Translations under genes and position numbers: made by a program
Shown: positions 4,466-31,959 of the stretch, one piece after another
How the letters are laid out: every line of letters starts with the position of its first letter
How positions within the stretch are numbered: position 1 is the first letter of the stretch
The notes under the pieces: model-generated
The model's database searches: none
What the model was told of the DNA's origin: nothing
The model's input: the letters and a program-made list of their open reading frames with translations, nothing else
DNA from: a virus
Lineage: Duplodnaviria; Heunggongvirae; Uroviricota; Caudoviricetes
Direction: 5' to 3' (one strand)
Length of the DNA stretch: 33,799 nucleotides
Virus record (IMG/VR): IMGVR_UViG_2537561934_000004

Positions 4466-5945
4466 TAATCACCTCAATACTGACACCACCGGGAACAAAC
4501 AACGGGTTGCTGATACCGTTCCTGCGGGCCAGCCGTTGCCAGTTCCGGCTGTTTCCTGTGTAACGGTACAGGGCCACCATTGCAGGCATCGTCTCCGGCA
4601 GACGGTGCGTTTCACTACCCGCCAGTTGCAGCCCGCGTTTTTCCAGGTCGGCAACAACCAGCAGACGCAGTTGCGTAAGCTGAACGCTGTCTGTCGAAAA
4701 GCCCTGCTCAGATGCCGTCAGAATGACGGTATCCAGCGCAGCCCCCAGCATGGCGGCTGTTTTTCCGATATCGGACACACTTTCAAATACCGGGGGCGTG
4801 GCTGTACCACTGTCTGAAAAGGATACCTGTGAAAAGCCGCCGTCCGGGGTTATGGCAGTTAACTGTAACTGTCCCTGTGTGACGGTAGCAGATGTGCTGC
4901 TGGCCCCGCTGGCTGTGCCGGTTGTGGTGGACGGGGCATCCAGTACAGGTGCACGGGCGGCATTATCCATCCGGCGACTGAAATCCAGTGCCGCAGTCAG
5001 TGCCTGGCTGGCAGCTTCTGCCCGGTATGTCTGCGCCGCTGCCAGCATGACGTAGTTCAGTGTGGCAATATTTTTTTCTGCAACCGGACTGTTGTACGAG
5101 GTTGTGATTGCCCCCTGTCTGCCTGCGGTGGCGGCATGGCGACGTTCGAACCGCTGCGCCAGACGGTTCCAGGTGGAAAATGCTGTCCGGGTATCGCATA
5201 ACGATGAAACGCCGGACAGCGCCCCCATCAGCGAGGAGGCCAGCATGGCAGGCTGGTTAATCAGGCCGGTCACAGAGCCTTTCATCGCAGAAAGCGATCC
5301 CATCAGACCGCTGACAGTCTGCGTAACCCCCAGATTGTCCACCGCATCACTGATATCATCGATGACACCGGTTACAGCTTCCATCACGGCGGTTGCCGCC
5401 GCAGTGCCATCTTTTACGGTCTGCCAGACAGAGGACAGCGTATCTCCCAGAGAACCGGTTACAGCAACGGACTGTGCCGGTACGGCTACACTGGTGTCTG
5501 TCTCTGCGTCCGGGGCAGTATCCTGCAACGACGGATAAACGGTAACGGTGAACGCGTAATAATTCAGTTCATCCGCTTTAGTGCGGCATTCCCATGAATC
5601 CACCATGACGGCCACAGTGCCGAAATCAGGATGTACCAGCTCACCGCTACCCGGAGCATCAAGAGCATCCATCAGCGCACCCGCTTCATCTCTGGCAGTC
5701 TCTGCGTTGCTGTTCAGAATGCAGATGCTGAATGTGCGGGAGCGAAGCTTTTTCCCCAGGTCGTTGACACCGCCGGTATCACGTAACGGGTACTCACGTT
5801 TAACCAGACGACGTCCGCCAGCCTGTTTTTGCTCCTCGATGACGAGAAACGGCACGTTACGGAACGTGCCTTTGCCGGTTGTTTTCCTGCCTCCACCGGT
5901 TTTATCCCGGACAGCATTAACGGCATTTAAAGCATCTTCAAACAT
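4458..5945 (-). CDS. N: DNA circularization protein N (Mu gp43-like)
   Basis: 495-aa ORF immediately downstream of the tape measure gene; size and position match Mu N. Confidence 0.8.
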
Positions 5946-5949
5946 GGTT

Positions 5950-8025
5950 TTACCAGCCTGTAATGTAGTTATCGCCCGCGTAAATATTCAGCCCCATACC
6001 ATCCTCGGTGACGCGGGAACTGGTCAGACGTAACCCCTCGCCAAGTTCGACGCGCAGCGAGGCTTCCGCATTCACTTTTTGCTCCTGCGGTTCCTTATCC
6101 GTGGCCGTCCACTTCTGATACAGGTCGGTTACAAAACCGCCCAGATACTCCCCGGCGACACTGCCCAGCGTGGCACCGGCAACCGTACCCAGCGGTCCGG
6201 CAAGGCTGCCAACGGCACCGCCGAGCCATGCACCGGCTGTACTGCCAATTGCGCCTGCTTTTTCATGGGTTGACGCCTGCTCATCCATCAGGACGGGGGC
6301 AAGCTGGAGTGCCCCCATTACCGGGCCACCCAGACGTGACAACGCACGCCCCGCGCCTTTCCCCATCCAGCCCAGCGCCCCGGCACCTTTTGTCACAACC
6401 CGACCGATCGCACTGCCTGCAAGTTTGTTTCCGATACCGGAAAACCACCCGCCAGCGGCACGCCCGGCATCAGCCAGCTTTCCGACCGCTCCCGTAACCA
6501 GTTGCCCGGCAGCACTGCCTGCAAGCCTGCTCAGAAGACCGGATTTACCGGGTAAAGGTAATGGTGCAGGCCGTGCCGTTACCGGTACGCCGGGTGGGGG
6601 TAATGCCAGAACAGGGCGTGGTGCAGGTAATGCCAGCGGCTGTGGCCCGGACAGCAATAACGGCTGGCGGGGTAACAGGGGCGTCATGCCTTTGCCTTTC
6701 CGGGTGCGACCACCACGGCCACCGCTTCCGTAACCGCCGAACCCGTGAGGCCAGTTAGTGACAAACACACGCTGAATGCCGATACCCTGCAACAGCGTCT
6801 CAGACGTCATGGCATCCGGGACCGGCAGACCTGCCTGCCCACGTTTGCGGTTTCGCATCCAGCGCCACATACGACGCCCGGTTTTAAACGGATAACTGGC
6901 AACCTGCCATGAGGGTTTTGCCACGGCCCAGCCTGCTCTCAGGGCTTTATTGGCAAGCCAGACAGACACCAGAACAGCAGCCAGTTTTTTCAGGCTGACA
7001 ATATTCTGGTCAACCCATGCCAGCGCATCTTTACCCGGTTTCAGCCAGCGCCATAATTCCTGCGCCGCGATTTTTACCTTTCTGAACGTGGTCAGGAATT
7101 TCTGACCAATGTTTTCTGCCAGTGCGTCCAGCTCCCCGGATTTATCCGCCGCATCGTGCCAGTTAAGCACCCGGCGCATCTCGTTCTTGATTTCTTCAAA
7201 GGGGCCGCTGTTTGCCACCTTCGTGCGAAACTCAAGCAGGTTGCCCTCCATCTGGGCCATCATCCCGTCCCAGGAGTTCATGGCAGCCGCCTGTGCGCCT
7301 TCTGACTGCTCCAGCAGGGTCCGGAATACCGTCAGAATGGCTTTCTTGCCCAGCTTGCCTTTTTCACCCAGCTTACGGATTTTTTTCTCATCCTTACCCG
7401 TTGCATCTGCCAGCACCTTGTAAACGTTGATACCGTAACCGGTCAGCAGGTTGGCGTCCGCCGCCGTGATTTGCTGGCGGGCAAACATCTGTTTGAACTG
7501 TAACGAAGCCCCCTGCGCGGTGGGTAAATCCCAGCCATGCATCGCGCCCTGATTCTGTAGCATGGTGATGAACTGTTTTACCTGGGCGTCAGTCATGCCA
7601 AACGCCGTTGATGTGCGGATTTCCTGCAGAACGCCGCCCAGCCCCCAGGTGGTTTCTTTTGCGTTCTGCTTCGCCCACGCCATCATGGCCTGTGCTCTGG
7701 CCTTATCGCCGTGATACAGCGAGTTCATGGCGATAATCTGCTGCTCACGCTGGGCGGCGGCACCAATAAACAGTTTATTGGCGGTGTAACCCACGCCAGC
7801 GATACCCAGCGCCCCGGCTGACAGCATTCGGAATGTACGGGTTGACAGTGAACCCATTCTGTCAATGGCACCAGAAACGCGCACAACCTCCATACGCAGG
7901 GCACGAAGGGAACTTTGTCCGCTACGGGACAGGGCGTTTATCTGGTTCGAATACTCGCGGGAACGCCGGGAAAGATTGCCATTAAGATCAATAATGACAG
8001 ACGCCTTTAAGCGTTTCCCGGTCAT
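5950..8025 (-). CDS. Tail tape measure protein
   Basis: 691-aa ORF between tail tube/chaperone and N. Predicted helical N-terminal two-thirds and a Gly/Ala/Pro-rich low-complexity C-terminal third. Start has an AGGAAA Shine-Dalgarno. Confidence 0.85.
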
Positions 8026-8169
8026 AGAGATTTCCTGATTTAACGGTGATATTGAGAGAGGGTTTTAGCCTGCTGGCAGTGCCGGAAAAAGCGGGACAGC
8101 GGGAGAGACAAGGCCCATTCCGGGCCACTTTTCAGAATAACGCCAATCGCTGTCGCCGCTTTCTCAATA

Positions 8170-21796: not shown

Positions 21797-21823
21797 AATA
21801 ACCGGCAGGATGCCGGTTATTTT
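21797..21823 (-). terminator. Hairpin overlapping the C stop codon (possible middle-transcript terminator)
   Basis: AAATAACCGGCA-GGA-TGCCGGTTATTT, an 11-12-bp perfect inverted repeat spanning the C stop, with U-rich flanks. Confidence 0.35.
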
Positions 21824-22239
21824 GGGCTTTCAGGTGAGAACAGATCAGGCTGATGACGTCGTGTATGCAGCTTTCTCTGGCGGGCAATAATCTGGTAGAT
21901 CTGCGGCTGGGACAGGCGATACTGGCGACGCAGTTCTTCCATGTTACGACCATTGAACTGGCAGTAAAGCAAATCGTCGCGTAACGCGGTCAGGATCGTA
22001 TCGCCGCAGGGGATGTAAAACTGCCGCCCGCCCAGAAAACAGGACAGGGCAACGGCCTGTTTACGGGCAAGCTCACGGGGATTGCTGACGTTCTGGCGTT
22101 TCAGTTCGTTTTCCAGAATATCAATCAGATCAACCACTGAACGGGGCCAGCGTGATTCCAGTTCCGGGGCCGGGATGTTATCAATATGCCCGATTAACTG
22201 GCGAATTGCCGGATCGTGTTCAAATAAATCATGCTGCAT
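21817..22239 (-). CDS. C: Late transcription activator C (Mor/C family)
   Basis: 140-aa ORF, same size as Mu C; its C-terminal half (GGRQFYIPCGDTILTALRDDLLYCQFNGRN...LSQPQIYQIIARQRK) parallels Mor at 23032..23421 (GGGQVYIPRGQVLDSLIRDLRIWNDFNGRN...GVTFNTVYKAIRRMR). Confidence 0.85.
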   Translation of the reverse strand: MQHDLFEHDPAIRQLIGHIDNIPAPELESRWPRSVVDLIDILENELKRQNVSNPRELARKQAVALSCFLGGRQFYIPCGDTILTALRDDLLYCQFNGRNMEELRRQYRLSQPQIYQIIARQRKLHTRRHQPDLFSPESPK

Positions 22240-23001: not shown

Positions 23002-23024
23002 AAAAAAAGCCGGATTAACCGGCT
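23002..23024 (-). terminator. Rho-independent terminator immediately after mor (end of early transcript)
   Basis: Minus strand reads AGCCGG-TTAAT-CCGGCT followed by TTTTTTT, starting 8 nt after the Mor stop; about 9.3 kb from the left end. Confidence 0.6.
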
Positions 23025-23031
23025 TTACTGT

Positions 23032-23421
23032 TTACAGAAGTGAGGGCTGGTACTGGCGGTATTTCAGCCGTCGCATCCGGCGAATGGCCTTGTAAACCGT
23101 ATTGAAAGTGACACCATAACGGGTGGTCAGTTCGCTGACGTTGCGACCGTTAAAATCATTCCAGATACGCAAATCCCGAATCAGCGAGTCCAGAACCTGA
23201 CCGCGTGGAATGTAGACCTGACCGCCGCCCAGATGCTTACAGATAGCCACAACAATCTCCAGTGAATGGGCAGGATCAACACCCAGCCGGGACAATTCCC
23301 CGCGTAGTAAATCGTTCAGCTCCGCCAGCAGTGCCGGAAAGCGTGACGTATCCTCTGCGGGATTGTCAAGATGTGCCAGGATGGTGTCATCCTGCAAATC
23401 ACCAAATAAATCTTCCGTCAT
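23032..23421 (-). CDS. mor: Middle operon regulator Mor (Mor/C family activator)
   Basis: 129-aa ORF (Mu Mor is 129 aa) with a C-terminal region paralleling C; last gene before the early terminator. Confidence 0.85.
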   Translation of the reverse strand: MTEDLFGDLQDDTILAHLDNPAEDTSRFPALLAELNDLLRGELSRLGVDPAHSLEIVVAICKHLGGGQVYIPRGQVLDSLIRDLRIWNDFNGRNVSELTTRYGVTFNTVYKAIRRMRRLKYRQYQPSLL

Positions 23422-23969
23422 TGTGCCATCCTCCGCGTCTTTCTGGCATGGGCATAAGCCGCCGTCATGGCATCATAGCCGCGCAGTTCACGACCGGACG
23501 GACTGACCGGCAATGGAAGCCCGTGACGGGAAAAGGCTTCACGAATACAGCGGATGTGCCACTGCTTGAGTGTTTCGAGGACTGTCAGCAGCGTGTCGCC
23601 ATGACACCACGCCAGTGTGGAAACGCCCTGTCCGCCGTTGCGTTTCGCGGTCAGGCGCTGAACATATTTATCCAGCGCCACATCACCGCCATCGGTAATA
23701 AAACCGTCTTCTGCCATCTGCTGCCAGACTTTGTACACCTTCTCGCGGGGCGTGACATGTTCCTTAAAGCGGCGACGTGGATGTTTATTCAGCTTCTTAA
23801 AGCCGCGTTCTTTCATTGCATCGAGCGTCTGTTCCAGTTGCGTAACCGTCAGCTCGCGGCAACTGGTTTTGCCCGTTTTCTGCATCAGAAAGGCGCGGTA
23901 AGTGTCATCGTCGAGTTGTAGCTCCCGACGGGCGACATGGATTAATTTAATAAGCGATGTGCGATTCAT
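23418..23969 (-). CDS. gemA: GemA-like protein (Mu gp16-like)
   Basis: Frame 23418..24137, started at internal ATG 23969 (MNRTSLIKLIHVARRELQLDDDTYRAFL...), which has a GAGGTG Shine-Dalgarno; ATGA-coupled to mor. Confidence 0.7.
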   Translation of the reverse strand: MNRTSLIKLIHVARRELQLDDDTYRAFLMQKTGKTSCRELTVTQLEQTLDAMKERGFKKLNKHPRRRFKEHVTPREKVYKVWQQMAEDGFITDGGDVALDKYVQRLTAKRNGGQGVSTLAWCHGDTLLTVLETLKQWHIRCIREAFSRHGLPLPVSPSGRELRGYDAMTAAYAHARKTRRMAQ

Positions 23970-23999
23970 TTGCTCACCTCTCATATTAAGGAATGAGAT

Positions 24000-24416
24000 A
24001 TGAAAATTGATTATGACGAGATAGCCAGAATATTTGATGTTTTTCTGGAGGCCGACACCGCATTCATTCGACTGGAAGATGTCGGCTGGGAGCGTTCTCA
24101 GCGGCACAGCGACAGCCATCAGAAGCTGGTTTTCCATCTTCTGTTGCTGGTTGAAAATGGTTTTATCAGCAACAGATATCTGGAAACAGGCACCGCAAAA
24201 AGCATTGGTCTCACCCCAACAAGCCTCGGATATTCATATTCAGGCACCAGTGTCAGACTTACACAAGATGGTCATGATTTTGCGAAAGCACTACATCAAA
24301 AACCCATTCTTGAGCGCATAAAACAGGACCTTGCCGACGCCCCGATGACGCTCGTAACAGACGTCGGCAAACAGTGGTTAACCTCGTTTCTTAAAAAGAA
24401 ACTCGGGATTGAATAG
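24000..24416 (+). CDS. Hypothetical protein (138 aa) on the strand opposite to the early operon
   Basis: ATG at 24000 preceded by AAGGAA 8 nt upstream; no internal stops. Its 3' end converges on and overlaps the 24378..24689 gene by 39 nt. No family recognised. Confidence 0.6.
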   Translation: MKIDYDEIARIFDVFLEADTAFIRLEDVGWERSQRHSDSHQKLVFHLLLLVENGFISNRYLETGTAKSIGLTPTSLGYSYSGTSVRLTQDGHDFAKALHQKPILERIKQDLADAPMTLVTDVGKQWLTSFLKKKLGIE

Positions 24417-24689
24417 TTCCCGGTTCATACGTTGCAGCACATCAAGGGCGGCGACAGCCGCCACTTTATCGTTACCATCAGCAATAGTGCGGAGATTTTC
24501 AATAATCCAGTGAGGACTCAGTGACTCAGCAATAATGCCAAACCGGTACGCCATGACTTCATCAATAGCTTTTTCATGAGACGGCTCATATACAAAATTC
24601 ACAAAGTCATGCACTTCTTTTTTCGGCAAACCACCGGCAATCAGCAGGGCGGCAAGCTCTTCTGATTTTGAAAATACACCATTATTCAT
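24378..24689 (-). CDS. Hypothetical early protein (about 103 aa)
   Basis: The ORF-track start at 24704 is a GTG; the first ATG is 24689 (MNNGVFSKSEELAALLIAGG...), preceded by GAAGGTGAG and abutting the upstream stop. Confidence 0.5.
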   Translation of the reverse strand: MNNGVFSKSEELAALLIAGGLPKKEVHDFVNFVYEPSHEKAIDEVMAYRFGIIAESLSPHWIIENLRTIADGNDKVAAVAALDVLQRMNRELFNPEFLFKKRG

Positions 24690-24690
24690 A

Positions 24691-25449
24691 TCACTCACCT
24701 TCACAATTCATGCACGCCGTGTCATCGCCCATATCGCAGTGGTTGCATTTCTGCCCACCACAATGAGGGCACTCTTTCAGATATTCAGGGTTTTCATTAC
24801 CGCAGGTCGGGCATTCCTGTTTCACCGTGGTGAATGTCCCCAGCCACGAATACGAATTTTCACCGACTGTCTTTTTCCCCGTTATTTCTGAATCAGAACT
24901 AATACAGTGTTTTTCAACCCATGCCACACGTGCTGAATTCAGGTGGCATCTGGCCAATTTGCTTTCGTTTCTGTAATGTTTGCTGTCCCGGTTAAATGGC
25001 AATTTCTCATTCAGCCCTGCTGAGATAAAGTCCGCATGTAATTGTTCTAATGCGGCTTCACTGTCTGCACCGGTTGATTCAAAATAATCGTAAGCATTGG
25101 CACATAATCCGGCAGCCCGGGTAAATACATCATCGCCCGTCTCCATTGCCCCATTCTTTAACCATCGGTTGTAGGCTGTATAAAAACTATAAAGTTGCTT
25201 TCTGATACAGGTAGTGGCAGTTCCGCCATTAACTGACGCTGGCGTAACATAGCCAGCTCTGCATAAAGCAGAACGAAGTATATCCAGAACCTGCCAGGCA
25301 TCTTCTCCTTCAATCACGCTACAGTTTTTGTACACCAGGACGTCCCGGCCACAACTTTTATCAATACCCCAGTCTTCAAATTTCACAACCAGCCTCCTGC
25401 ACCACACCCGGTGCTGATGAAAAATCAATGATGAGATAACGCAGTACAT
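24691..25449 (-). CDS. Hypothetical early protein with a C-terminal four-CxxC cluster
   Basis: C-terminus CPTCGNENPEYLKECPHCGGQKCNHCDMGDDTACMNCEGE. The ATG at 25449 overlaps the upstream gene by 74 nt; a GTG at 25386 has an AGGAGG 6 nt upstream and is the more likely start (231 aa). Confidence 0.6.
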   Translation of the reverse strand: MYCVISSLIFHQHRVWCRRLVVKFEDWGIDKSCGRDVLVYKNCSVIEGEDAWQVLDILRSALCRAGYVTPASVNGGTATTCIRKQLYSFYTAYNRWLKNGAMETGDDVFTRAAGLCANAYDYFESTGADSEAALEQLHADFISAGLNEKLPFNRDSKHYRNESKLARCHLNSARVAWVEKHCISSDSEITGKKTVGENSYSWLGTFTTVKQECPTCGNENPEYLKECPHCGGQKCNHCDMGDDTACMNCEGE

Positions 25450-26013: not shown

Positions 26014-26538
26014 TTAAATACCGGCTTCCTGTTCAAACGGAATAATGGAAAAATCTTCAATTCCCGATTTAACCGTAATTCCGGCAACACCTGCGACGGC
26101 TTTTGGTTCCAGTAAAATCGCCTCCTTGTTGATTTCCTGCTTCGTGCGAATAAAGCGTTGCAGGCCAAGACGCTCCAGCGTTTCCATCACTGCATCCATA
26201 CCACGAATACTTACTGATGGTGGACGGACCCGCCACGATACATCACCGGTGACAAGATTCGCCGTCTTCACTTTGCCGCCGTTCGTCAGTTCGTCGCGGT
26301 TCGCTTCACACCATCCCTGAACGCCTTTTGAAAGGGTTTCAATATCGGTTTTAATCGGTGCAATCCGGGCCGCAAATTTCTCCGTAATTTCCGCGATGGC
26401 ATCATTCATTTCCGTTTCCAGACGTGATGCTTCGCGCTGTAAATCCCCGATGCGTTTAATATCGGTAATCACCGCATCGCGGTTTTGTGGCACATAAGCC
26501 GCTGCGGCACTCTTGATACGTTTTGCTGGTTTAGCCAT
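26014..26538 (-). CDS. gam: Host-nuclease inhibitor Gam (DNA end-binding)
   Basis: 174-aa ORF of Mu Gam length in the Mu gam position; the sequence MAKPAKRIKSAAAAYVPQNRD... matches Mu Gam as I recall it. Confidence 0.9.
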   Translation of the reverse strand: MAKPAKRIKSAAAAYVPQNRDAVITDIKRIGDLQREASRLETEMNDAIAEITEKFAARIAPIKTDIETLSKGVQGWCEANRDELTNGGKVKTANLVTGDVSWRVRPPSVSIRGMDAVMETLERLGLQRFIRTKQEINKEAILLEPKAVAGVAGITVKSGIEDFSIIPFEQEAGI

Positions 26539-28054: not shown

Positions 28055-28993
28055 TTAATTACGCAGCAGCGTTGAAATATCAACGTCCAGGTCTAATTCA
28101 CGGAAAGCCTGACGCAGATAATCTTCGTTAACACGCTCACCTTTACCGTGAGCCGTCATGGCGGCAAGGCGAAGTGAATGATTCAGAATGCGAAGCGCAC
28201 CTGGTTTCTGCGCAATCTGCTGTAATAACTCCAGTTCATTTTCGCCGTTAATCTGCCAGGCATCCGCAATAGCTTTTACATCGGCTTTTTTTGTTTTATT
28301 AATTGCAGTGCGCTTTGCAATACGGGAAAACAGACGGGCAAATTCAACCGTTCTGTTACCCCCCGTCATATTTGAATAAACCCGGTGATTTCCCATCAGC
28401 ACAAGGCCAGTGCGGGTTGATTCCTGTAACAGGCGGAGTTCTTCCAGAACTTCGGCACCAAGATGATCAGCTTCGTCGATGATAACCAGCCCCTGTGTAC
28501 CTTCAAGGCGACGTCGCAGGGCACGGGAAAGTGGCCCTTTACGGCGTGGTGCGTCATTCATTCCCAGCTCAAACGCCAGTTCAGTAAGACATTCCAGAAC
28601 ACTGGCGCAGGATGGCGTAATGGTGATCATCCAGACATTGTTATTGGTGCGGCGATATTCACGGGCCGCTTCGGTTTTGCCCACACCAGGATTGCCACAT
28701 ACAACAGCAATACTTTCAGTCAGGCTGGCAAAACGCATACTTGTCCAGATTTGTTTTACCGTCTGCGTTTCCACAAAGCGGGGCGGTTCAGGTAGTTCTG
28801 CAACTGCATGATATTTTTCCAGCCAGCGTTGCAGCATTTGTGAAACACGCTCGTTATCCCCGTTGTACTTATCATTGATAAAACTACTGATAGTTCCGGT
28901 AGAAAGTCCGCTCTCAAGAGCAATTTGTTTAAAGGTGGTTTCTTCATTTTCTACAAGCGTGCGCAGTCCTGCGCGAATATCGGAAATATTCAT
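28055..28993 (-). CDS. B: Transposition target-DNA activator MuB (AAA+ ATPase)
   Basis: 312-aa ORF (Mu B is 312 aa) with Walker A GNPGVGKT and Walker B-like IIDEAD; immediately downstream of the transposase. Confidence 0.9.
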   Translation of the reverse strand: MNISDIRAGLRTLVENEETTFKQIALESGLSTGTISSFINDKYNGDNERVSQMLQRWLEKYHAVAELPEPPRFVETQTVKQIWTSMRFASLTESIAVVCGNPGVGKTEAAREYRRTNNNVWMITITPSCASVLECLTELAFELGMNDAPRRKGPLSRALRRRLEGTQGLVIIDEADHLGAEVLEELRLLQESTRTGLVLMGNHRVYSNMTGGNRTVEFARLFSRIAKRTAINKTKKADVKAIADAWQINGENELELLQQIAQKPGALRILNHSLRLAAMTAHGKGERVNEDYLRQAFRELDLDVDISTLLRN

Positions 28994-29031: not shown

Positions 29032-31020
29032 TTAAATGGCTTTTTTACGTCTGTTCTGTTCCAGAATATCCAGCGAATGATTCAGATATTCATCACGCTC
29101 AGTTTCGTATTCATCATCACGCTCCTGATTCTTCACCCGTTCCGTATTACCGGAAGGCCGGAAAATGCCGACAATTCGTGATTCTGGTGCTTCAGGTTCG
29201 GCTATCTGCGGCAGCAGCTCTGCCACTTCCAGTGCATCCATTTGTTTCTGTGCCTTAATCGCTGCTTTCGTCGCAGATTTCAGTTGTTTCTGGCGGCGGC
29301 GATATTCACGGCCTGCCGCAGCATCATTAAACGCAACAGGTGCCAGACATTCCGCTTCACAGATAAACCGACCGTCCAGGGTGTAACAATAAACCGTGCT
29401 GTGTAGCTGCTGCGGATCAAACCTGACCACAACTTTTTTCACGCCGGCATTCATTAATGCCATGTTGTAATAAACGTTTTTCGCGCCTTTAAGGGAGCCG
29501 CCAACTTTAAGCGTAAACTCGCCTTTGCGTGAAACGTTCACCGCCTCGGCAGGCAGTAACAGCATCCGTTTTTGTTCTTCGGTTGGCTTACGCACAATCG
29601 TTCTGGCGTATTCACGCTCGAAAACATCATCAAACGAGAGTTTGCCCCCGCACATTTCTGTTTCACGGCCTGTTCTGGCATTGAACATCGCCACACCTTC
29701 GGCAAGGTTTTTCAGAAACAGCTCTGCATCAACAGCGCGGTTGCCATAGTTATCAGGTTTTGCCTGCGGATTTGGCCCCGTATATGCGCCAGCCAGTGCC
29801 GGATGCTTATCAACGTATTCCTCAAGCCCACCAACACCGAAAGCACGTTCAACAGGTTTTGCCTGGCCCCAGCCTTTACCGGCAACAACGCTTGTCCAGT
29901 GCATTTTCGCACCCATCAGTAAAAACAATCCCTTTGGATCGTCTTCTTTCACCTTAAAGCGGTAGCGATTGGGCGCGCCTCCCGTCAGCCATTTATTCGC
30001 AGCACCACGGGTGTTATCAATGGTGATGTGAAAATCCTCCGGGATACCGTAGCGAGTCACAACATCCATGAACGAGAGGCGAATTGAATCAATGTTCTCG
30101 CTCACATCGCAGCGCCAGCCCAGAATTTTTCGGGTTTTCACATCCTGCCAGAACCATGTTTTCGGGCGGATCACATCACCGTTAAACCAGCGTACAAAGA
30201 CGTTATGCAGATAACCGTCGCCGTTGATCCACTGCATGGCGTCCAGGTGTTCCACAGTTCGCTGCTGTGCCGGTATCAGATGCATCAGTGCATGTTCACC
30301 TTCACGACAGGCAACAACCATTGCCTCGTCCAGTTGCTGAATCCGGCGAAAGGCCGTGGCACGGGAGGGAATACTCCAGCCATGCTCGCGGGCTGCCAGT
30401 TCCAGACGCTCATAACATTTGCGGAAGGCGGGTTTTTCCGGTCGCAGATAATCTGCAATCAGAAACTGCCAGGCATCCTCGTCAAATTCACTTTTGTGAA
30501 CATTGCGACGGGATGCACCACGTCCATCAACAAGTGCAGCCGCCCAGTCAGGCTTCGCAAACTTCTGTACCTGGTAATACTTGTCCCGCAAAGTGGATGC
30601 GCTGACCTGGTAATGCCCTGCAACGGTCGCAAAAGCCGTTTTCGTTGAAATCCCCTGGTTCAGCATTTCGTCTGCAGCCTGAACCGCAGGCAACCATTTT
30701 TCAGCAAGTCTGCGCTGGGAATCGCTGGCTTTATCCCATTTGCTCCACAGCACCTCACGATCATAATCATGGGCTTCCAGCGTGGGGCGGGCGATTTCAA
30801 AACGGCCCAGGCTTGTTTCAATTCTCCCTTGTTGCAACAGAATTTCAGCACGTAATGCGACAGGGAATGATTTGATATTGAATTCAAATGATACACCTTT
30901 AGTCCCTGCAACCTGTCTGAACTCCCAGCCTTCTCTTTGTGCCTTACGTGTAATGTTAGTGGCTTGCTTTGGTAAACCTGCCAAACCGAGCAACTCTTTT
31001 GCTGTATACCATTCTTTCAT
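29032..31020 (-). CDS. A: DDE transposase MuA
   Basis: 662-aa ORF. Acidic residues at D268 (WINGDGY), D335 (HITIDNTRG) and E391 (KPVERAF) sit one residue before MuA D269/D336/E392. The C-terminus ends QNRRKKAI, the MuA tail recognised by ClpX. Confidence 0.95.
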
Positions 31021-31434: not shown

Positions 31435-31959
31435 ATGATGTCTTTTGAAATCAAAGAATGGTTTAATGCGAAAGAGCTGGAAGGGATGCCTGGTGTACCA
31501 AAGTTGGCGACTAACATTACCAGGAAAGCTGTGGCGGAAGATTGGGTAAAACGTCAGCGTCACGGTGGGAAAGGTGTCGCTTATGAGTATCACATCAACA
31601 GTCTGCCAGAAGAAACACGCAGGGCCATTAAAGGAGCCTCACTTTCTGATAAACCAGTGCATACATCAATCGCCCATACAGTTGATGAGAGGCTAATTTA
31701 TGCAATGAGCTTCTTAACACCAGATGAGCAGGCCGCAGCTGTGGAGATCATTCGTGTGGCAGGGATTAAAGGACTTATGCCTACAATTGTCAGTAAAGAT
31801 AAGGCATTAGAGGCATTAGGGATTACTGTGGAGCAACAGAAAACCCTGCAAACTCTTCAGGCATTACCACCGGAAAAAGTGAGAGAGATTTTGTCTCAGT
31901 ATGAAGGCAAAGAACATAATTTCCCTGTAAGAGAAAACGATGTAAAGAAAGCTGTATAA
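31435..31959 (+). CDS. c: Mu-type repressor (c)
   Basis: 174-aa ORF divergent from ner. Its N-terminus ([61 protein letters not shown]) parallels the transposase N-terminus ([60 protein letters not shown]). Confidence 0.8.
   Translation: MMSFEIKEWFNAKELEGMPGVPKLATNITRKAVAEDWVKRQRHGGKGVAYEYHINSLPEETRRAIKGASLSDKPVHTSIAHTVDERLIYAMSFLTPDEQAAAVEIIRVAGIKGLMPTIVSKDKALEALGITVEQQKTLQTLQALPPEKVREILSQYEGKEHNFPVRENDVKKAV

Follow-up and report, generated by a model that had tools for sequence, protein, structure and literature searches.

A divergent DUF2513 winged-helix gene and a convergent phrog_1988 gene as a swappable cassette in Mu-like prophages

A 138-amino-acid open reading frame that opposes the early operon of a Mu-like Escherichia coli prophage is a genuine gene, and together with the early-strand gene that it meets tail to tail it forms a swappable two-gene cassette exchanged as a unit. 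The prophage was analyzed as one window of 33,799 nucleotides (IMG/VR record IMGVR_UViG_2537561934_000004), in which the gene occupies positions 24000-24416 of the plus strand. Its product is a small winged-helix protein of the PadR/MarR type that probably binds DNA, and its partner belongs to the phage family phrog_1988. With a probability of roughly 0.55, we favor a reading in which this accessory gene is one half of a mobile cassette and would encode a regulator made in the silent prophage, the partner being made in lytic growth. The convergent cassette and its mobility are new here, no description of either having been found in the literature searched.

The tail, head and lysis genes of the window all lie on the minus strand, as do the Mu-like genes C (21817-22239), mor (23032-23421, encoding a protein 99% identical to Mu Mor), gemA (23418-23969, gp16 family, Pfam GemA E 8e-31), gam (26014-26538), B (28055-28993) and A (29032-31020); the repressor gene (31435-31959) is on the plus strand. 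The gene mor marks the distal end of the cassette-bearing operon, where a terminator-like hairpin is present on the minus strand at 23026-23006 (AAAGCCGG..CCGGCTTT, tail TTTTACG). A first-pass annotation had described a rightward 138-residue frame amid leftward genes, with its own AAGGAA ribosome-binding site and a 39-nt 3′ overlap with a leftward early gene, and each of these points agrees with the coordinates: the frame opens with an ATG at 24000, a Shine-Dalgarno sequence AAGGAA read from the sequence lies at 23988-23993 on the plus strand, 6 nt 5′ of the ATG, and the two coding regions overlap convergently at 24378-24416. The orientation is also borne out by the prophage of E. coli 22KM0354, which is 99.8% identical to the window over 23418-24689 and in whose PGAP annotation, from the baseplate genes to ner, every coding sequence is on the early/late strand save the winged-helix gene and the repressor. 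The leftward frame spans 24378-24704; its likeliest start is the ATG at 24689, which gives a protein of 103 amino acids (24378-24689, minus strand) that matches phrog_1988 over its full length (E 5e-52). On its other side the winged-helix gene diverges from gemA, with the two start codons 30 nt apart and both ribosome-binding sites held within the intergenic region (23970-23999, 30 nt). Neither this 5′ divergence nor the conserved status of the overlapping gene as a partner had figured in the first-pass annotation. Apart from the genes described, the minus strand of the 408-nt gap between partner and gemA contains no open reading frame longer than 42 amino acids.

The frame at 24000-24416 is a gene, not a chance reading frame, because it matches PHROG 585 over its full length (E 3.2e-31, residues 1-137 against profile positions 1-127 of 128), has homologues at 30-99% identity, shows dN/dS values of 0.03-0.21 across ten pairs from several lineages, which indicate purifying selection, and gives a confident AlphaFold2 model. 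A word search recovered 29 homologues; those in the 30-99% identity range come from E. coli, Salmonella, Enterobacter, Citrobacter, Serratia, Pantoea and marine Gammaproteobacteria, and the distant relatives L006, L009 and L019 likewise match PHROG 585. A profile search with the protein reached 453 cluster representatives (50% identity clusters), nearly all of them stand-alone proteins of 130-146 amino acids, and the longer family members carried no informative additional Pfam domain. No motif had been recognized in the protein at first pass; it is in fact already named in RefSeq and by PGAP as a “DUF2513 domain-containing protein”, and several homologues have precomputed PF10711 hits. The window protein itself falls below the Pfam cut-off, and it is best placed in a divergent DUF2513/PHROG 585 subfamily because it scores 15.9 bits against DUF2513 (PF10711; E 0.017, residues 39-110 only) where the gathering score is 29.6. 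Among the relatives reached from its profile, P0104 (48.4 bits) and P0167 (34.5 bits) pass that cut-off, P0110 scores 29.4 bits, and one also passes the Pfam cut-off of YjcQ (PF09639). Like the DUF2513, PHROG 585 and YjcQ proteins, it is a stand-alone protein in the range of ~130-145 amino acids from a family spread over phages and bacterial mobile elements. NCBIfam gave no match to it, nor did the PadR and MarR models of Pfam. A literature search found no functional study for DUF2513, PF10711 or IPR019650; the family thus has no characterized member, and membership is therefore uninformative about function.

The AlphaFold2 model of the protein (mean pLDDT 84, pTM 0.76) contains the H1-H2-H3 helices and beta wing of a winged-helix fold, followed by C-terminal helices with pLDDT values of 50-60. 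The most conserved motifs in the alignment, FH..LL..NG.IS and RLTQDGHDFA, would map onto helix three and the wing, respectively, in our reading of the model, guided by what winged-helix proteins have in common. The same winged-helix core, with a “...LLxxxGxI...” helix and an “RLTxxGhxF” wing motif, is shared with DUF2513 and PHROG 585. The best Foldseek matches of the model were all MarR/PadR-DNA complexes, albeit non-significant ones: nothing in BFVD or the PDB reached E <=0.001 (E at least 0.03), and profiles of the winged-helix protein and its partner found nothing significant among PDB sequences (best E 0.2 and 0.11). Sequence identity to PadR/MarR regulators, F93 of STIV and TubR is only 8-21%. 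The protein is slightly acidic overall, the predicted recognition helix is mostly hydrophobic as judged from the alignment, and no enzymatic, toxin or membrane domain accompanies the winged helix. Because winged-helix domains can bind proteins too, DNA binding is not assured.

Mu markers were located by tblastn in a set of 90 loci, and jackhmmer was run with phrog_1988 over all of their open reading frames. The constant neighbor is the convergent phrog_1988 gene, not gemA: in all 40-odd Mu-like loci a gene of this family lies immediately 3′ of the DUF2513-like gene and converges with it. The two coding regions overlap by 39, 30, 18 or 15 nt depending on the lineage, or are separated by 2-3 nt (L042, L061 and L065) or 23 nt (L069). 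In the E. coli, Salmonella and Citrobacter types the pair is found 30-71 nt upstream of gemA, in the Kluyvera type (L009, L010 and L067) it lies downstream of gemA, before a 119-residue gene and the early terminator, and in L061, L065 and L066 it sits within the baseplate operon between a gpV-like spike gene and Baseplate_J; further pairs were found in L064, L042 and L005. Adjacency to gemA was considered as the defining feature and was ruled out by the Kluyvera type, which uses the other side of gemA, and by the baseplate-operon pairs of L061 and L065. In each context the phrog_1988 gene shares its strand with the operon around it, which the winged-helix gene opposes. The two proteins differ from the window in step, with identities for winged-helix protein and partner of 99% and 89%, 63% and 51%, 49% and 38%, and 44% and 29%. 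A phrog_1988 gene stands without the winged-helix gene in SfMu (gp14) and in two E. coli prophages (L023 and L024), and the partner therefore does not need the winged-helix gene. The partner protein had no match in Pfam, NCBIfam or PADLOC and belongs to no family beyond PHROG 1988; its AlphaFold2 model, from an alignment of six sequences, consists of helices only at low confidence (pLDDT 58).

In Mu-like prophages the slot beside gemA is a mosaic junction, and this end of the early operon is probably a hot spot of recombination. Segment 23950-24450 is present at 98-99.6% identity in five of 5,426 complete E. coli genomes, SE11 included, and the window allele occurs in five of the 81 E. coli genomes that have gemA at no less than ~80% DNA identity. 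In the other 76, as in Mu, D108 and SfMu, megablast homology ends at the gemA start codon, which marks the left boundary of the mosaic. Compared with L026, the window has flanks that are 93-99% identical, only 43-63% identity across 24000-24650, and a recovery at ~24700; the comparison with SE11 gives the reverse pattern, with a winged-helix gene that is 96-100% identical and a gemA at ~80-87%. The cassette is swapped as one unit between Mu-like prophages that are otherwise nearly identical. Other prophages hold something else at this position: SfMu (gp16), E. coli W and RMDEC465 have an unrelated 88-residue opposite-strand open reading frame, STEC719 and JCKP02 have no opposite-strand gene, and strain 06-00048 has a gap. 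The proposal that the gene is accessory is supported by its restricted distribution, by the other occupants or empty versions of the slot, by the sharp mosaic boundaries and by relatives inserted in other operons. Its expected conservation in related prophages was also found across Mu-like loci, where homologues at 48-63% identity occupy the same slot in diverged lineages; it is therefore not a one-off recent acquisition, and the cassette has the look of a long-standing resident that recombination exchanges. The gene has no counterpart among the conserved Mu early genes: across 50,697 phage records, tblastn returned three distant matches only, none in Mu, D108 or SfMu, and the megablast homology of the window to these three phages skips the winged-helix segment. 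The GC content of the cassette (0.44-0.47) differs from that of gemA and not from that of the upstream early genes, so that as a sign of foreign origin it amounts to a contrast with gemA only.

Independent expression had also been proposed, and the signals around the gene divide on this point. On the supporting side, a terminator-like hairpin (GGCGGC-GACA-GCCGCC, tail ACTTTATCGT) follows on the plus strand at 24447-24472, 31 nt past the stop codon. Its T-rich tail is on the plus strand only and its minus-strand version lacks a T-run, making it terminator-like in one direction. An equivalent hairpin was flagged in L014, of the Salmonella type, and RNAalifold across nine lineages retained a 7-pair stem in which three pairs have pair-preserving changes on both sides. 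The hairpin lies inside the codons for DK.AAVAAL, the most conserved motif of the partner, and although it may act as a terminator it may also be a dual-use element or a by-product of coding. On the other side, a scan for sigma-70-like promoters upstream of the winged-helix gene, of a kind that misses weak or activator-dependent promoters, found none in the window, and such sites were present in three of 20 lineages, a rate no different from the 7% background. A TGgATTAAT-like element inside gemA was discounted as a promoter because the conserved LIH codons of GemA account for it. Independent transcription of the gene is thus plausible, with a candidate end and no detected beginning. Between the divergent genes, an imperfect palindrome at 23974-24003 (TCACCTCTCAT-N8-ATGAGATATGA; an 11-nt inverted repeat, 82% complementary) may serve as a putative operator. 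The 30-nt divergent stretch is near-invariant among alleles whose proteins share 46-63% identity, and with its palindrome it is kept in L003, L013, L026, L038 and L039. The equivalent region of the Salmonella type holds a hairpin that is terminator-like in both directions, with a T7 tail for the early strand, just before the gemA Shine-Dalgarno sequence.

Under the favored reading, the winged-helix gene would be a short transcription unit of its own, with its own Shine-Dalgarno sequence and a one-way terminator placed within the coding sequence of its partner. It opposes the early operon head-on, and would therefore be expressible in the lysogen only, when that operon is silent. During lytic transcription, converging RNA polymerases and antisense RNA would switch it off, and the phrog_1988 partner would be produced in this phase only. 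The winged-helix protein would most likely act as a dimeric DNA-binding regulator of the repressor type, with the gemA-mor unit, the activity of the partner or foreign DNA as candidate targets. Several observations weigh against this scheme. No sigma-70-like promoter was detected in the window or in 17 of the 20 lineages, the protein is slightly acidic with a mostly hydrophobic predicted recognition helix, and the hairpin, which falls on a conserved Ala-rich motif in the partner protein, could be a coding by-product. Phrog_1988 genes also occur without the winged-helix gene (SfMu gp14, L023 and L024), and the distant DUF2513-like genes of a lambdoid phage (before xis/int), a Yersinia phage and an integrase-bearing island stand alone and are co-directional with their neighbors. 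As these relatives have no partner and no opposing orientation, the convergent logic is not family-wide.

The divergence from gemA raises the alternative that the protein times the gem operon, binding the 30-nt divergent region or its vicinity and repressing or modulating transcription and translation of gemA-mor, so that Mor and the middle/late cascade stay off in the lysogen. Small PadR/MarR-type regulators are classically encoded divergently from the genes that they control, and here the divergence from gemA, at 30-71 nt, recurs in ~35 loci from lineages whose GemA proteins are 43-100% identical. The intergenic stretch with its palindrome is better conserved than both flanking genes, the Mu record (AF083977) places a “semi-early” promoter at the same spot, and the gem operon of Mu is reportedly expressed in lysogens (Paolozzi & Ghelardini 1992, as cited in PMC3820752). 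We nevertheless consider this alternative unlikely: the cassette keeps its phrog_1988 partner and not its position relative to gemA, as the downstream Kluyvera pairs and the L061 and L065 pairs without gemA nearby illustrate, Mu and most E. coli Mu-like prophages do without the winged-helix gene, and the palindrome, short and imperfect, would be conserved anyway through its overlap with both Shine-Dalgarno sequences. A defensive role, in which the protein alone or with phrog_1988 shields the lysogen from superinfection, for instance as a repressor or sensor of incoming DNA, would suit the position of the gene, which like a moron sits on the opposite strand in three unrelated operon contexts, and the strong diversification of alleles among otherwise near-identical prophages. 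Chromosomal relatives adjoin a CBASS Cap15 effector with its cyclase and PDC-S19, others adjoin a PDC-S02-like NucS nuclease, and still others an AriA/PD-T4-4_A-like ATPase (PARIS-like). A Mu-like Pseudomonas phage also has lysogen-expressed exclusion genes on its repressor strand (PMC9936078). The first-pass annotation had leaned toward the class of genes that often serve exclusion, defense or anti-defense, but this assignment is not supported. PADLOC-DB v2, searched with E up to 1, matched neither the winged-helix protein nor phrog_1988 nor the two upstream genes; the protein is a winged helix only, with enzymatic, toxin and membrane domains absent; the island neighbors of distant relatives are a handful of cases, anecdotal and carrying no enrichment statistic; and a regulator beside defense operons is not a defense effector. 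We regard a defensive role as a doubtful, minority explanation.

Strict adjacency of the two genes across several genomic contexts, their parallel divergence and their exchange as a unit would also fit an antitoxin-like or immunity-like pair in which the winged-helix protein neutralizes phrog_1988, a lytic host-takeover or toxic factor, and so renders leaky early transcription harmless in the lysogen; the low-confidence C-terminal helices are of a kind common for interface segments. Parallel divergence is, however, expected from linkage alone, and phrog_1988 occurs by itself in SfMu and two E. coli prophages and so need not be toxic. Protein toxin-antitoxin pairs are usually co-directional operons and this one is convergent, and no toxin or antitoxin family in Pfam, NCBIfam or PADLOC is matched, which together make such a pair quite improbable. 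An anti-defense protein, inhibiting a host immune system for the benefit of the phage, is more improbable still. The protein is small, variable and accessory, the semi-essential early region also keeps the host-interaction genes gam and kil, and the neighboring GemA, though molecularly uncharacterized, sensitizes phage JBD30 to Gabija (PMC12407980). Yet a gene opposed to the early operon would be silenced exactly when an infecting phage needs counter-defense, the fold is a generic winged helix of the DNA-binding type rather than a known inhibitor or DNA mimic, and no related anti-defense family was found. A spurious or decaying frame with no functional protein, to which the missing promoter might point, is effectively refuted by purifying selection, the full-length PHROG match, the confident fold and conservation at 30-99% identity. 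A broader and decidedly speculative extension, which we think improbable as a whole, is that the pair is an undescribed mobile two-gene module, a head-to-head lysogeny-versus-lytic switch that can insert into any operon (early, baseplate or capsid) with one gene riding on it and the other opposing it, and whose fast-diversifying alleles would mediate immunity or exclusion or an early-to-middle checkpoint.

The gene shares several traits with morons, accessory genes that, in the definition quoted in PMC4378225, are inserted singly between two genes lying side by side in related phages and carry a promoter and a terminator of their own. In Mu-like phages, moron-like genes occur at defined regions of plasticity (PMC4378225). 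The winged-helix gene is present or absent among close relatives at a fixed slot, reads from the opposite strand and is followed by a terminator-like hairpin, and relatives of it are inserted in structural-gene operons, as opposite-strand genes within a baseplate operon and beside a capsid gene. Unlike a typical moron, it is part of a convergent two-gene unit, has no detected promoter and resembles an old resident rather than a recent insertion. A parallel in layout is provided by olg1/olg2 of the Mu-like Pseudomonas phage Fc02, which are expressed in the lysogen and for which exclusion has been shown experimentally (PMC9936078). These too belong to a transposable phage, are accessory, lie on the strand opposite the early lytic operon and overlap a lytic-strand gene; they differ in flanking the repressor, at the opposite end of the early operon, and in encoding unrelated proteins. 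Type II toxin-antitoxin modules are not matched, the window pair being convergent rather than co-directional and having no toxin or antitoxin domain.

The gene was already annotated as encoding a DUF2513 protein, and what is gained here is the setting of a prophage accessory gene from an uncharacterized winged-helix family. At its gemA boundary, the largely unassigned semi-essential early region of Mu-like phages holds a cassette that recurs and is exchangeable, to which a predicted fold, a fixed partner and a testable convergent logic of lysogen versus lytic expression can now be attached, turning a “hypothetical protein” into a defined experiment. Proteins of the DUF2513/PHROG 585 type are found in prophages, satellites and defense islands, and a result obtained in the tractable E. 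coli host would annotate the whole family.

The 88-residue open reading frame of Mu, SfMu and E. coli W (phrog_8747) reproduces the same arrangement with different proteins; in Mu it reads from the reverse complement of ~7896-8162 of AF083977. It is immediately upstream of and divergent from gemA, is the sole gene on its strand, and converges with the ~100-residue early gene Mu_14 with an overlap of ~62 nt. It has no sequence similarity to the winged-helix protein, and Mu_14 has no phrog_1988 match. SfMu gp16, the 88-residue frame of Mu and an extra opposite-strand frame of L017 were all rejected as relatives (BLASTP E >2). At this slot the Mu GenBank record (AF083977) has Mu_54, annotated on the other strand over the DNA of the 88-residue frame, together with the semi-early promoter, which suggests that the classic Mu genome record may lack an opposite-strand gene at the same position.

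The 30-nt intergenic region between gemA and the winged-helix gene contains an imperfect palindrome, TCACCTCTCAT-N8-ATGAGATATGA (window 23974-24003), which covers both ribosome-binding sites. The stretch that bears this palindrome is almost invariant across cassette alleles, although the proteins they encode are only 46-63% identical.

Phage Mu itself carries an intact 88-aa ORF that lies directly upstream of gemA and is oriented against the early operon (L002, 2141-2407, +; the reverse complement of AF083977 at about 7896-8162). This ORF is convergent with Mu_14, which it overlaps by ∼62 nt, and it matches phrog_8747 over its full length (E 7e-60). Equivalents are found in SfMu, as gp16 (L001, 2140-2406), in E. 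coli W (L020, 2223-2489), and in a further locus (L024, 1422-1688), and the ORF is annotated by PGAP in E. coli W and SfMu. In the Mu GenBank record, AF083977, the same DNA is instead annotated with Mu_54, a 55-aa product on the other strand, for which no PHROG match was found. While the Mu ORF resembles the window cassette in architecture, the proteins are unrelated.

A single Salmonella-associated Mu-like contig (L017) contains an additional, unrelated opposite-strand ORF of 134 aa with an acidic tail, located between Mor and gemA (4982-5386, +) and without a PHROG match. This suggests that both flanks of gemA are open to opposite-strand cargo. In the Salmonella-type Mu-like prophage L014, a strong terminator-like hairpin on the early strand (5943-5971; GGCGGTG-N6-CACCGCC, tail TCTTTTTTT) is positioned directly 5' of the gemA Shine-Dalgarno, and a second terminator-like site on the same strand (5385-5408) separates gemA from the Mor/C-family gene, so that gemA has a predicted terminator on each side. 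The window has a strong terminator-like hairpin directly after mor (23006-23026, -; AAAGCCGG-TTAAT-CCGGCTTT, tail TTTTACG), which is likely the end of the early operon.

The 252-aa early gene at window 24691-25449 (-) matches phrog_6418 over residues 22-252, whereas its correspondence to Mu gp13 is limited to the last 56 aa (91% identity), and Mu lacks the extra N-terminal region. The C-terminus of the product contains several zinc-ribbon-like CxxC motifs, with weak matches to Zn_Ribbon_1, DZR, and DnaJ_CXXCXGXG.

In eight IMG/VR viral contigs (L071-L078, e.g., L074, 5010-5162), the match to the window protein is limited to residues 84-137 (61-63% identity), and no full-length ORF was found. 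These contigs may contain a truncated copy, or another protein with just the C-terminal helices in common. DUF2513-like genes of chromosomal and metagenomic origin, whose products share 41-46% identity with the window protein, adjoin defence genes. Their neighbours include a CBASS Cap15 2TM effector and cyclase, PDC-S19, and toxin-antitoxin genes (L027, 2899-5106; L028; L029), a DUF7669-NucS_C nuclease that is PDC-S02-like (L006, 6001-7840), and an AriA/PD-T4-4_A-like ATPase (L092, 1419-4447; L092-L094). The Alcanivorax and Hydrogenovibrio copies encode proteins that are 92% identical, yet their neighbours differ.
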